Below, in pieces: positions 39,659-62,925 of a DNA stretch of 64,000 bases (within the stretch, counting starts at the first letter, position 1; the number at the start of each line of letters is the position of its first letter). The position numbers were made by a program, and so were the translations under genes. The notes beneath the pieces were generated by a model that searched no databases, was not told the origin of the DNA, and saw nothing but the letters and a program-made list of their open reading frames with translations. The stretch lies in assembly GCA_965113315.1 (NCBI GenBank), contig OZ220363.1; one strand, 5' to 3'. Origin of the DNA: Podarcis vaucheri. Taxonomy: Eukaryota.

Positions 39659-39841
39659 TCAGTAGTGAACCTGATCAGTGAACTACAAGAACAAATGTGT
39701 AGACTGCAGCTGGACATTAATAGTAAAATCCAGGAAAGAAAATCCCACAGTAGGAAGCCAAATATGGCAGCAGTCGGTCCTCAAGATAGCATTGACTCGG
39801 TGACAGAGGTCCCTGTTTGGAAGAATTGCACTCAGTGTGAT
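39659..39841 (+). CDS. PPFIBP2: Probable cassette exon (SVVNLISELQEQMCRLQLDINSKIQERK...NCTQCD)
   Basis: Long pyrimidine tract + TAG acceptor, 183 nt (61 codons, no stop), GTATGA donor, heptad-like N-terminal half, phase 0-0. Confidence 0.8.
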
Positions 39842-44412: not shown

Positions 44413-44445
44413 AGGAAGTGTATAGGCGAAGGCTAAAAGAAAAAC
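44413..44445 (+). CDS. PPFIBP2: 33-nt microexon (EEVYRRRLKEK), phase 1-1
   Basis: Pyrimidine tract + TAG acceptor, C|GTAAGC donor, frame-preserving. Resembles the short DENFKKKLKEK segment at the same position in liprin-beta-1 (from memory). Confidence 0.82.
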
Positions 44446-45853
44446 GTAAGCCCTAAGATTTCGCTTTATTACTTTTCACACACAAATTATACCTAAAGTG
44501 CACTTCTGCAGCAATAATCATTCAATGTTGGCTCTGTAGTTGACTGCTGAATCGTAACATGCGGGGTGAATATCTCATTGCTTACAGCAGACAGAATGGC
44601 TTTAATACAGTCAGATTTATTATCTCACACAAAATCTCCAATGTTGCGTAAGTGAACAGAAAATGGGCATTAAAGAGGCTCTGTCAAAGTTGGTGGACTC
44701 CAGAATAGACATTTGTATATTTAAACCACAAAAGATGCATTGCTCATGCACAGCTTTTACCCCCCCACCCTTTTTGGAAAGGGGGTTTTTCTTCCAAACC
44801 TTCAAGACCTAGCATTTTAAATATTTCCATCTTAATTGTAGATAATACCTTATTTTTGAAGAAGTCTTCATAAAAGTGAGAAAACCTTGACATAGCTCTT
44901 TTAAAAGTCTTTTTTCCTCCTTTAAATCTGACTGGGTGCTTGTGCCTTGCTTGTCGTTAAGTGTGGCTTTAAGAAAAGCAAAAACTGTGTCTGTCCATGC
45001 CACATCTATGTGGAAATTCCACTGCCTGCTAAAATATGATTAAAACACATAACCCACTAATTGGATCACTCCCACCACTAGATTTGCAGTACAGCTGTGA
45101 TAATCTAAACTTTATTTTTTTTTAAAAAAAAACTACTGAATACTAATTCTCCCCCTCCCTGTACTAATATTTTTGCAACACTATTCTTCTTTTCCTTGTG
45201 TGTCACATTGCCATCTTTGCAAATTATTGTTTTGAAATGTCACTATTTTAAAAATGCCTAAGATTTGGGATAGTTTTGTTTAGAACACCTAGGAATGTGT
45301 GTTGCTAGGACAACTGCTGTAGTCAAATCAGTCCCTGCATTCTCAGTCAGCTGTATCTTCATCCCAAGCCAAAGACTGTTAGCTCTAAAGTTACTTCCAT
45401 GTCTGCAGTGAGCAAAAAACGATCTAATGAACGCGTACAAAACTTCAACTTCTTCCCAGAAGTTTTTCTCTTTGAAGGGTACAACCTATTCACAAGGTGT
45501 ATATTCTTATTGGAGAAAGAAAGACAGTGACTCCCATACGAAGGCTTGAAAGCTGATAACCAAAACTTAAATTTTGCCTGTTGATGATAGCAGGGTATAA
45601 GGCAGTTAGAAAGTGAGCCCCTAACTAAAAAGCATCTGCTGCTGTTTGGTAAATGGCTTTAGCACGGACTAGGATTTCTTTTGCACTACTTGGTACAGGG
45701 GTGTGGAACTTGAGGCCTAGAGGCCAGATGTGGTCTTCCAGGTTCCTGTAACTGGCCCTGGAGACTCTCACTAATCCTGCCCTCCAGTGCTTTTGTGTGG
45801 CTGGAATGTATGCTTGAACTGTGATGATGCCTCCCGTTTGCCTAATTGGAGAA

Positions 45854-53848: not shown

Positions 53849-54040
53849 GCAAGAACAATTTTTCTTTGTTAAATCTGTGTTTCTCAGAACACTCTTTTTT
53901 CATATTGTAAAACATTCTTTGAAATACTTGCTTTTGTGTCAAGAGCATGTGGTCAATTGGGGCAAAACAGTTAAATTTAGAATGCATCAAGAAACCTGCT
54001 CTTTAAAATGTGTTCTTCTGTTTACCATTACGATTAACAG

Positions 54041-56285: not shown

Positions 56286-56327
56286 CATGTAGATGCGAAA
56301 CCAGTAGAACGTGATGTAGCACAAGAG
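56286..56327 (+). CDS. PPFIBP2: 42-nt exon (HVDAKPVERDVAQE), phase 0-0
   Basis: ACTAAC branch-like motif near 56233, pyrimidine tract, TAG acceptor, GAG|GTATAT donor. Size matches the 14-aa segment expected here. Confidence 0.82.
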
Positions 56328-57395: not shown

Positions 57396-57546
57396 AATAA
57401 GCCATTTGTGAAAAGCAGCAAATACCAAACCTTGCCAGGGAAGCTTCCTCGACCTGCGCACAACGGCGATACTGGGGCATACAGTACTCCTTCTCCAAGT
57501 ACGTGCCGTGTGAATGGCAACGGAGACAACAGTATACAGAGCCTGA
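57396..57546 (+). CDS. PPFIBP2: Liprin-beta-2 exon (NKPFVKSSKYQTLPGKLPRP...NSIQSL), phase 0 to 1
   Basis: CAG acceptor, A|GTACGT donor, 151 nt, conserved KYxTLPGKL. Confidence 0.92.
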
Positions 57547-57622
57547 GTACGTACTTCAGGGAGGAGAACAATTAAAGCATGCCTTCGTGTGATATGCAGC
57601 TTGGGTTTTAGCTACTTAATAG

Positions 57623-58850
57623 CAGTCAGTCAGTCAATTTTATTGTATATCGCTAAAGGCCTTTACAATGGAGGACAGAGAATTTAAGGAAAACTTTCAT
57701 CTAAAATCATACAACATAACCTGAAGCAATTTACAGCATAAAAAGAAATTCACAACATTAAAATTTAAGATTCACATAGCTGGAATGGAGCTTCTTGGCT
57801 CCCAGCGCAAATTTGGCTTCCTGGTGTGTAATATATAGGTGTTTATCTGCTAGGAATTCAACTATCACCTCCTGTGCAGATTGACCTGGAAGCCAATTAA
57901 GAATTGGCGATATAAATTTCCTCTGGGCATTGTATACAGGGGGCAAATCAGCAGGGAGTGTGTAATGTCTTCTGCCTGAATGCATCCGTATATACATTTG
58001 CGATCCTTATAGGGAATTCCCCAATCCCCTCTAAATATGCTGAGGGCATCTGTTGGAATTTTATTTCTACAAAGGCCCTCCATAGTTGTGGGTAGGTCAG
58101 TGTCTCAAGGTGATTGGTCTTAAATTTGGGGGTACCAAGTAGAGTAATAGGTAGCAATGATGGATATTCTGTCTTGGTTGGCATCCTGATCAAAAATCCA
58201 ATTTCTAAGGTCACGTGGGCTAAAGGCTAAGTAGTTCTCCATTTGAAGACTATAAGCCCTAAGCTTATCTTGGCACTTCTGTGCCTAGTCCCCAGTCCTT
58301 AGTTGCTCTGACCAGCAGAGCTTAGTGAGAGTGTGTTCCTCGAAGGCATTTAGCCTGTTCCACTATCTCAGATAGGCTAGATCAATTCTGGCTGATAGCG
58401 AGGGGGTGCCCAACTCAGCTCTGACGTGGGCTGCCGATGTCCCGCCAGAAAGCTCCAAATCTGCCTGTAGGACCTCTATTTCAGATTTAATACCAATTCC
58501 CCATATTTCAGCTCCACAGAGCAGTTGGATGATGATTTTAGAGACAAGGATCTTAAAAGCTGGCTTGATTAACTGCCCACCCTTTGAATGAAAGAACCCA
58601 TATAGCTGCCCAGTAGAATGGCCAGATATTAGCTTAATGGCTTCCAGATGGGGTTTCCATGATGACTTACCATCGATAAGTAACCCTAGATATTTAAATC
58701 TGGGTACTTGCTTTAGGGTGTTACCGTCTAGAGTCCACCTGGACTTAGTAGTCCTCTTGCCAAATAAAGTGACCTTGGTTTTATAGTAATTAATGTTTAG
58801 ATGCTCTTTTTTACACAGCTGTCCAAATTTAACCAGCATCCTTCTAAGCA
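57623..58850 (-). mobile_element. 5'-truncated non-LTR retrotransposon (RTE-X-like), RT C-terminus + Cys/His motif
   Basis: LNINYYKTKV...FKYLG RT thumb motifs; C-terminal CIYGCIQAEDITHSLLICPLY; AATAAA followed by a (TGAC)n tail. Clade assignment is uncertain. Confidence 0.8.
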
Positions 58851-59826
58851 CATAGTATGATGCTTTGCTAAATTAAAGGAGGAAACCTGTTTCCACCTAC
58901 TAGAAGGTGGAAAGTTGGATTTCCAAGTAGCTTAGACCCCAGGACTCTGCTTGGTCATGTTTAATGTGAGCCATTACAACAACTGGGATGTACAGAATAT
59001 GGAATTTTGTTTACCCCTGCAAAGACTACTGTTAGACAATTTGCAGGGGAGGCTGAAATTTCACATGCCGAATGCTCTGTGGGCATGGCTTCATCTAGGC
59101 TAGCAGCTACCATGCTTGGCAAGGCTGTGTAAAGGGAAAACCTGTCCCTAAGCATGTCTGCTTGGGACTAAGCTCCATTAAATACAGTGGAACATCAGAT
59201 AATGGACCTTGCACATCTGTCTGCAACTATTACCTTTTGATATTGGAGTCCCGGAAAGAAGTAGACTACATGCATACGTCTACTGTTTTAATTACAGAGT
59301 GTTAAGCTGCTCCTTTTAAATATCCTAGACAATTTAAAATATTAAGTAATAGTTTCAAACCTAGACTTCACTGGGGAAAGCAAAGTTCTCTGGCTGCTCT
59401 CTATAAATCAAGCTGGTAATTGAGTCTAAAGCGGAGTTTTGATTTGTTTTTTGTAAAAAGAAACATCAAACATCAACTACATATTACTGGGATTTATTTT
59501 GTGTTTAAGTGGGAACAGCCTGCATTTTATTCCTATTTTCTTTTTCACTTAGGAGTGTTCCATATGAAAAGCAATTTTTTTAAACTGCATAATACATTGT
59601 GGATCCTTTTTTAAAAAAAAATCACAGGTCTCACTTTAGAATATTTTCTAGACAGCAGGCCCCAAATGTTCAACTTCATCTGCTTTGTTACTTTTGCTTC
59701 CTGTCAATTTTTTATTTCCTGCTTTTGGCTTTTGGCTTTCTTTGCTTTTCTGTAACTTTCCTTTGCTTGAATTTCCCATCGTCTTTGCTTCTTCATGTGG
59801 CTTTCTGGTTCTTGGAATGATTGAAG

Positions 59827-59859
59827 ATCGCATCAGGAGTGTCAGTGCACCAATCTTAG
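59827..59859 (+). CDS. PPFIBP2: 33-nt microexon (NRIRSVSAPIL), phase 1-1
   Basis: ~165-nt AG-free pyrimidine-rich tract, AAG acceptor, TAG|GTATCG donor, frame-preserving. Resembles RTASAPNL of liprin-beta-1 (from memory). Confidence 0.85.
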   Translation: MASGVSVHQS

Positions 59860-60275
59860 GTATCGTACACCTAGTCCATGCTCAGCTTTTAAGCTAGGAA
59901 TGAATTGCGGGGGGAGTCCCCCGTTACTTCTTGAATTGCACATAGTGGACTGTCTGAAATCTTGATTTTTTTACACTGAAAGGGAAGAGCCCAATTTAGC
60001 TCCTAGTAAATGAAATGTAGACAGACAGTGCTAGACTTCAATCTCTGAACTAGAACAGAGATTCAATATAGTGGTTGATTCTAATTGGAGCTAGACATCT
60101 ATTACTTTGGAAGCAAAATTCATATATTGGAAAGGGGGGGTTAATGTGGCTCCTTATTTAACCATTTTTTAAAATATAAAAACCTTCCTAAATTTATTTT
60201 GGCAATAATGTTTTAACATAGGCACCCACAATAATCTTAGAAATTCAACTGCCATAGTTTTTTCAGAAGGATGCA

Positions 60276-60895
60276 CCGTATTTTTCGCTCTATAACACGC
60301 ACCCGACCATAACACGCACATAGTTTTTAGAGGAGGAAAACAAGAAAAAAATATTCTAAACGAAACAGTGGATGTATGATTTTTGTGGTTCATGCTGTGG
60401 CCACAGACATGTGATCTGACAGTGAGTTTGGAGTAGCCCAGTGCAAAAATCCATGTGGATCCATGCTTTGTAACCATGTTTTTGCACCACTGCGGCCCCA
60501 GACAACAGTGGGTGTGTGATTTTTTGGGTGTAAGATGTAGCCATGGACATTCTATGTGATCTGATGGTGAATTTGGGGTGACCCAGTGCAAAAATCCTGA
60601 GGATTCATGTAGATCCGTGCTTTACACTCGTGTAAGCAGCTCCTCTCATCTCCCGCTTTGCTCCTTTAAAGCAAACAGGCTCTCTGTCCCTCACTCCTCC
60701 CCACTCAGCAGCTCTTCTCCCGCTTTGCTGTTTCAAAGCAAGCCACGGAGGGGGGAAGGAAGGGGAACCATGGATCCTCTGCTCACGACTGCAGCAGACC
60801 CCCCCCCCCATAGGCATTCCCTCCATAACACACACAGACATTTCCCCTTACTTTCTAGGAGGAAAAAAGTGAGTGTTATGGTGCAAAAAATACGG
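60276..60895. mobile_element. Non-autonomous pogo/Tc2-like DNA transposon with internal duplication
   Basis: TIRs CCGTATTTTTCGCTCTATAACACGCAC / GTGAGTGTTATGGTGCAAAAAATACGG; TA on the right; ~145-bp internal repeat unit (60409-60468 versus 60554-60623). Confidence 0.8.
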
Positions 60896-61249
60896 TAATT
60901 TTCAATCCTATATTCATATTACAAATAAGATGAATGTTATTAATCGGTAGTTTTCTGGTAAACCTGACAATTTTATAATGTGATTGCAGAAATCTTTAGC
61001 TAGTTCTTCCAGTCTTTATATGTTTTGATACATTCCGGGGGGAAGTCCTCTAACTAGTAATAAAAAATGCAATTTCTAAGTCTGAGAAGAATCACGGACC
61101 ATTATTTCAGGAATGTTGCCGAGTAAAATTGGAAGTACTTAGCCCTATATGATTTAAGATGTTTTGGGGATTATGAATTTTTGTGAAGTTTTTCCTTTTG
61201 CATTTTATACCATGGCTTCATAAATCTCAATGGCATTTATCAATCACAG

Positions 61250-61388
61250 GGGACTCTGACAATATGGATGGTACAATGAATTCAGATGACCTTTCACCTT
61301 TGTCATCGGGAACAGAATCTGGTGCACAGTCTCCATTATCTCCGGAAAATAAAAGAAGTCCAAGAGGAATAAAGAAAATATGGGGAAA
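61250..61388 (+). CDS. PPFIBP2: Liprin-beta-2 exon (DSDNMDGTMNSDDLSPLSSGTESGAQSPLSPENKRSPRGIKKIWG), phase 1 to 2
   Basis: CAG acceptor, AA|GTGAGT donor, 139 nt. Confidence 0.96.
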
Positions 61389-61550: not shown

Positions 61551-61679
61551 AATACGCAGGACCCAGTCTGGAAATTTCCCTGGAGATGATCTGGGCTTGG
61601 TTGAATTTCGAAGAGGTGGCCTCCGTGCAACAGCTGGACCTAGATTGTCTCGGTCAAAGGACACCAAGGGACAGAAGAG
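61551..61679 (+). CDS. PPFIBP2: Liprin-beta-2 exon (IRRTQSGNFPGDDLGLVEFRRGGLRATAGPRLSRSKDTKGQK), phase 2-2
   Basis: AAG acceptor, AG|GTAAAG donor, 129 nt, hallmark EFRRGGLRATAGPRL. Confidence 0.97.
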
Positions 61680-62774: not shown

Positions 62775-62925
62775 TGATCATAACGCCCCATTTGCCCAAT
62801 GGGGCACTGAACGAGTCTGTAACTGGCTTGAAGACTTCGGTCTTGGGCAGTATGTCATTTTTGCACGACAATGGGTGACATCTGGCCACACCCTCTTAAC
62901 AGCAACACCGCAGGATATGGAAAAG
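62775..62925 (+). CDS. PPFIBP2: Liprin-beta-2 SAM1 exon (DHNAPFAQWGTERVCNWLEDFGLGQY...TPQDMEK), phase 2 to 0
   Basis: cTAG acceptor, AAG|GTAAGA donor, 151 nt, SAM-domain signature W...V..WL...GL.QY. Confidence 0.98.

Follow-up and report, generated by a model that had tools for sequence, protein, structure and literature searches.

A conserved alternative microexon of liprin-beta2 encodes a candidate 14-3-3 docking motif

The liprin-beta2 gene (PPFIBP2) of the lizard Podarcis vaucheri carries a 33-nt alternative exon that, when spliced in, adds the sole RxRSxSxP motif of the protein. We give a probability of about 0.6 to the reading that a basophilic kinase likely phosphorylates this motif, which then likely serves as a docking site for 14-3-3 proteins. 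The exon itself is already annotated in public gene models, because its peptide, NRIRSVSAPIL, is present in 57 of 120 sauropsid proteins (the best 120 of 756 matches) and missing from the others. The splicing of phospho-motifs is likewise a known principle, and it is the function of this particular site that is apparently unreported.

A 33-nt alternative exon of liprin-beta2

The 64-kb stretch of DNA analyzed here (the window) was assigned to liprin-beta2 by a protein search with the peptide of the downstream exon, which is 100% identical to Podarcis records. Among the best 120 of 756 matches, all lizard or bird proteins, nearly all are named liprin-beta2 or PPFIA binding protein 2. Seventeen isoforms were placed exon by exon on the window (Table 1), and the microexon is found in P0001-P0004, P0010, P0011, P0014, P0022, and P0023. 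A lone A at 57546 closes the upstream exon, and its joining to 59827-59859 yields the same peptide as in Podarcis gene models. The position, the joint, and these models all agree with the first-pass annotation, which had proposed a 33-nt phase 1-1 exon coding for this peptide. With its AG and GT boundaries and preserved frame, the exon falls within the class of alternative microexons of at most 51 nt.

Table 1. Features around the liprin-beta2 microexon and its PPFIBP1 twin (window positions unless a contig is named)
Feature	Position	Strand	Remarks
33-nt cassette exon, phase 1-1	59827..59859	+	AG/GT-bounded; encodes NRIRSVSAPIL; both inclusion junctions in run X6
Upstream exon, 151 nt, ends in phase 1	57396..57546	+	joint 57546-61250 in RNA reads
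Downstream exon	61250..61388	+	RNA read joints; loose contig ends; protein-search query
Next exon	61551..61679	+	RNA joints; contains RRTQS
First exon of SAM domain 1	62775..62925	+	isoform mapping; Pfam SAM match
AG-exclusion zone, 166 nt	59659..59824	+	72% pyrimidine; six TGCT; letter scan
Weak, purine-rich 3' splice site	59792..59826	+	AAG; pyrimidines at 10 of last 20 bases
5' splice site GTATCG and proximal intron	59860..59883	+	resembles PPFIBP1 twin, minus its TGCATG
PPFIBP1 twin 33-nt exon, DRSRSASAPTL	L004:6186-6218 (G000:C29:4993186-4993218)		25/33 nt identical to beta2 microexon

Evidence for splicing comes from 8 of the 24 listed sequencing runs. Run X6 includes the microexon, runs X1, X5, X13, X23, and X24 skip it, and X21 and X22 are uninformative, with the gene barely covered. 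In the contigs of X6, the only including run, depth is 76 at the joint between the upstream exon and 59827, 79 at the joint between 59860 and the downstream exon, and 88 over the upstream exon, although contig depth says little about inclusion level. Skipping is seen in raw reads that join 57546 to 61250 (26 in X23 and 11 in X24, from the roughly 12% of each run that was read), with zero depth over the microexon, and the contigs of X1, X5, and X13 carry the same skip junction. The four contig runs had only been guessed to be RNA, and their spliced junctions show that they are. These junctions are part of those in the read and contig sets, which leaves room for minor forms. Because inclusion and skipping junctions both occur in RNA, this is a real, alternative, and frame-keeping exon, neither unincluded nor constitutive, the two outcomes that had been named in advance as counting against it.

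Several other features of the gene were noted along the way. In X6 the upstream intron (57547-59826) is covered at a contig depth of about 8-14 and the downstream intron at 0-6, which is a weak hint of late removal of the upstream intron. The downstream intron holds a 622-nt element (60275-60896) with 28-nt terminal inverted repeats and heavy coverage by divergent RNA reads, which makes it a likely DNA transposon of the non-autonomous kind. A second 33-nt cassette exon (44413-44445), encoding EEVYRRRLKEK near the coiled-coil region, varies among lizard and bird isoforms and also occurs in the platypus protein P0123. Exons 56286-56327 and 39659-39829 are used by some isoforms only, and the short intron 53849-54040, whose frame is open in the window, is read through in frame by the Zootoca isoforms P0020 and P0021.

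The upstream tract and candidate splicing regulators

The AGs nearest to the tract before the microexon lie at 59657 and 59825 with none between them, which defines a zone of 166 nt. This matches the initial description of a pyrimidine-rich, AG-free tract of about 165 nt with six TGCT motifs (at 59681, 59695, 59720, 59743, 59764, and 59786). It is the joint longest AG gap on the + strand of the window, tied with 45093-45261, and shuffling the window 100 times with dinucleotides preserved never produced a gap of 166. At the 20 other acceptors of liprin-beta2 the AG-free length is 20-81 nt, at most half that of this zone. Separately, the tied stretch at 45093-45261 is A- and T-rich and has no mapped exon behind it. 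An in-frame exon of 201 or 204 nt, starting from AGs where the zone opens, was considered and rejected; it is absent from the 116 segments shown, and X6 joins 59827.

Under the rules for AG-exclusion zones, a length of at least 100 nt marks exons with distant branch points, and both the 166-nt zone and its 158-nt counterpart in PPFIBP1 exceed this threshold. Candidate yUnAy branch sites lie at 59678, 59714, and 59795 (-149, -113, and -32) in the zone and at -81 and -72 in the twin. The distant branch point proposed initially gains no clear support, because a candidate also occurs at the ordinary distance of -32 beside the two remote ones. The long AG-free tract, together with a weak, purine-rich acceptor, would be expected to make skipping the default.

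Sites were counted with the motif definitions in use for MBNL, PTBP, RBFOX, and QKI, and the two of these named in the first-pass annotation, MBNL and PTBP, gained no clear support. For MBNL, the six YGCY motifs equal the dinucleotide-shuffle mean (6.2, p 0.70), and the twin's zone has only two. TGCTT does exceed the dinucleotide-shuffle expectation (p 0.009), and of the 385 tiles of 166 nt in the window, just 7 contain at least six YGCY. For PTBP, CU tetramers fall below expectation (9 versus 14.4). The region around the microexon folds worse than shuffles (z +1.49). GCATG and QKI sites are absent within 300 nt of the lizard liprin-beta2 microexon, unlike in the PPFIBP1 twin, whose flanks carry RBFOX-type TGCATG at +13, +17, and -148 and QKI-type ACTAAC at +159. 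Because the beta2 flanks lack such sites, the regulators of beta1 may not carry over to beta2.

A short, conserved, frame-keeping exon behind a long pyrimidine tract with TGC might also be a neural microexon of the SRRM3/4 type that tunes presynaptic liprin-beta2, and run X6 carries no tissue label that would speak against this. SRRM4 has a position rule, however, by which UGC lies near the 3' splice site, and TGC is absent from -20..-3 of the microexon acceptor, where the nearest YGCY is at -41. The length of 33 nt is likewise outside the 3-27 nt range of SRRM3/4 neural microexons (PMC13174390). Furthermore, inclusion (PSI) of the human twin, PPFIBP1 exon 19, is 0.60-0.74 in four control muscles and 0.41-0.59 in eight ALS lumbar cords versus 0.005-0.076 in 12 ALS frontal cortices (PMC8983780). 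An SRRM3/4-type neural microexon is a very unlikely reading.

The PPFIBP1 work offers another model for control. TDP-43 represses human exon 19 and a 33-nt mouse Ppfibp1 exon at chr6:147016860-147016893 (PMC8983780), the latter being, as we infer from its size, its phases, and the paper's primer as read by hand, the counterpart of the lizard twin. In smooth muscle, a PPFIBP1 exon is activated by synergy between RBFOX2 and RBPMS, and MBNL1 overexpression opposed RBPMS (PMC12721327). By analogy, muscle- or glial-type factors (RBFOX, RBPMS, MBNL) may switch the beta2 exon on, with TDP-43 as a candidate repressor.

The putative phospho-motif, its twin, and its history

The motif RSVSAP conforms to the mode I 14-3-3 consensus RXX(S/T)XP, as had been recognized from the letters, with no proline at +1. 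The microexon peptide is the sole RxxSxP of liprin-beta2, and the skip isoform P0005 has neither RxxS/TxP nor RxRxxS/T. Among 132 vertebrate inclusion peptides from lizards, birds, monotremes, marsupials, placentals, and stickleback, picked by the pattern S-[AV]-P-x-L-G that leaves these positions free, R-5, R-3, and S-2 are invariant (132 of 132), and positions -4 and -1 vary. Mammalian inclusion forms make up 74 of 109 cluster members, in records of PPFIBP2 that, as listed, include no human or mouse. An earlier mammalian count of 2 in 120 arose because the query was the skip form, and these ratios thus do not measure inclusion.

This conserved serine lies outside folded domains, in a linker that is probably disordered, and the first Pfam SAM match follows 102 residues and two exons later. 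The first-pass annotation was right to place it upstream of the SAM domains and loose in saying just upstream. Likewise, its splicing switch holds as far as the alternative exon and a conserved, sole RxRSxSAP are concerned, and docking stands as a prediction from sequence. The Akt-type basophilic kinase consensus fits the microexon only, because position -5 is mostly G or S in invertebrate copies and in beta1 upstream copies; an Akt-like kinase would be the candidate to phosphorylate the microexon serine.

Mode I sites dominate known 14-3-3 sites, and at least 15 residues are needed between paired sites for one 14-3-3 dimer (PMC2860806). A candidate second basophilic site, RRTQS, follows 57 residues after the microexon serine, and an RRTQS-like site is present in 74 of 87 anchored liprin-beta representatives. 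A 14-3-3 dimer may bridge the microexon site and RRTQS, or bind across the two chains of a liprin dimer, and docking would then change the clustering or partner binding of the liprin-beta2 scaffold.

Human liprin-beta1 and -beta2 are both listed in 14-3-3 captures, liprin-beta2 in two studies with a contaminant degree of 0 (PMC3411107). These rows carry the tag "none" rather than gold standard and specify neither site nor isoform, and the captured liprin-beta2 could bind indirectly or through RRTQS. Among the matches listed in literature and supplements outside subscription journals and phosphosite and splicing databases, there is no mapped liprin-beta 14-3-3 site and no study of the PPFIBP2 exon. 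In the accessible portions of PMC8602034 (a review with 0 occurrences of 14-3-3), PMC10802621, PMC12350098, PMC4042849, PMC8929151, and bioRxiv 2022.12.08.519103, the exon goes unmentioned.

The motif also sits at this place in invertebrate liprin-betas. S/T-x-P-x-L occurs in the matching stretch of 47 of 87 anchored representatives, versus 2.6 (at most 7) in shuffles, and a few of the 47 are chance matches; anchoring succeeded for 87 of 150 representatives. Ten named bearers include insects, shrimp, horseshoe crab, scallop, acorn worm, nematode, starfish, hagfish, and one Logan cluster. This pattern imposed P and L/I and left positions -3 and -2 free, where R/K (41 of 47) and S/T (34 of 47) predominate.

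The switch could also be regulated and yet have its motif, with invariant A+1, P+2, and L+4, read by another partner, or used for intramolecular or kinase-docking contacts, with 14-3-3 binding elsewhere. The leucine at +4 and the mostly Asn at +3 that invertebrate motifs retain go beyond what mode I needs, a constitutive RRxxS lies downstream, and no mapped 14-3-3 site came to light in the sources searched. However, the unforced R/K-3 and S/T-2 fit mode I, and both liprin-beta paralogs are captured by 14-3-3 (PMC3411107). On balance we regard a different reader as rather unlikely and favor 14-3-3 docking at the microexon serine.

The twin exon helps to explain where the microexon came from. 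It belongs to a sister gene on contig C29 of the same lizard genome, which is probably PPFIBP1 given its likeness to beta1-type proteins, and its AG-free zone is the longest in the 30 kb fetched. Scored against the beta2 acceptor flank, a likeness of 20 of 33 is attained at just one of the 2051 AG sites in those 30 kb, the twin itself; for the donor flank, a likeness of 13 of 22 is attained at 2 of 1736 GT sites, the twin included. Farther out, the flanks align no better than shuffled sequence does, with 284 and 167 of 500 shuffles attaining the local-alignment score, so that what the twins have in common is limited to the proximal flanks and an AG-free tract.

The beta1 upstream exon ends in KRTASAPNL, and each microexon agrees with this tail at 22 of 33 positions, compared with 16 of 33 for the beta2 tail. 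In translation, the homologous beta2 upstream exon lacks a motif of this type. These matches suggest that the microexon began as a tandem duplicate of the final 33 nt of the upstream exon, made before beta1 and beta2 split, and that beta1 probably kept both copies and beta2 probably lost the upstream one. With that loss, the very presence of the site in beta2 would depend on splicing. In three hagfish models the upstream motif is present and a second copy does not show, which neither dates the exon nor excludes it in hagfish.

Such an origin might make the exon a near-neutral duplication leftover or a mere spacer, as could its place in a poorly conserved linker and its skipping in five of six informative runs. 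The motif residues are invariant while the rest of the linker diverges, however, and the flanks are kept between the paralogs; a spacer or near-neutral leftover is very unlikely.

Broader meaning and comparison with known systems

We tentatively consider it possible, though well short of probable, that liprin-betas share one bilaterian-wide 14-3-3 phospho-site that splicing toggles lineage by lineage through different means, and that the vertebrate twins split this logic. Among models that have the region, the motif-bearing segment is missing from 2 of 13 in Dendroctonus, from 1 of 13 in Cimex, and from 3 of 7 in Asterias, as it is from all five proteins of the Logan cluster, and each time the gap ends at the same PNL boundary. 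These forms are known from gene models and assemblies only, and were read by eye after a script flag miscalled two Dendroctonus rows. The toggle would consist of a 14-23-residue segment in the beetle and the bed bug, of longer segments in starfish, and of the duplicated 33-nt microexon in jawed vertebrates, where the beta1 exon would raise the dose from one site to two and the beta2 exon would act as an on/off switch.

As scaffolds in adhesion and at synapses, liprin-beta1 and -beta2 influence cancer cell invasion in opposite directions (PMC8602034). If true, a split between dose and switch could help to explain their opposite effects on cell migration. The microexon pinpoints one serine and provides a natural plus/minus pair, which makes the 14-3-3 question directly testable. 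It also offers a likely function for PPFIBP1 exon 19, already a TDP-43 read-out in ALS and FTLD.

Some known systems resemble the microexon in part. The alternative exon of HDAC7 (PMC10113009) is similar in that splicing tunes the 14-3-3 binding of a protein; it belongs to a different gene, and the beta2 exon is little more than the motif, with 14-3-3 binding that is only predicted. The striated-muscle microexon of Snap23, which is under MBNL, QKI, and RBFOX2 (PMC12064062), exemplifies a class of microexons, up to 51 nt long, that are not neural, and for the beta2 exon such regulators are candidates; the beta2 exon has no match in the supplement of that study. Planarian and human ppfibp1 have stem-cell-differential exons that are partly orthologous (PMC4978528), which is similar in showing alternative sequence across bilaterians, but the portion of the report available names no motif and the exons may concern another segment. 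The PPFIBP1 exon controlled by RBFOX2 and RBPMS (PMC12721327) is a tissue-regulated cassette of the same gene family, and it may be an exon other than the twin.

The closest relative is PPFIBP1 exon 19 (PMC8983780), which has the same length, flanking exons of the same phase, and the same place in the sister gene; the available portion of that report is silent on its peptide and on 14-3-3. It differs in that beta1 retains the upstream copy, so that its exon adds a second site 11 residues from the first, under the 15-residue minimum for one dimer in cis (PMC2860806), whereas beta2 has none without the exon.
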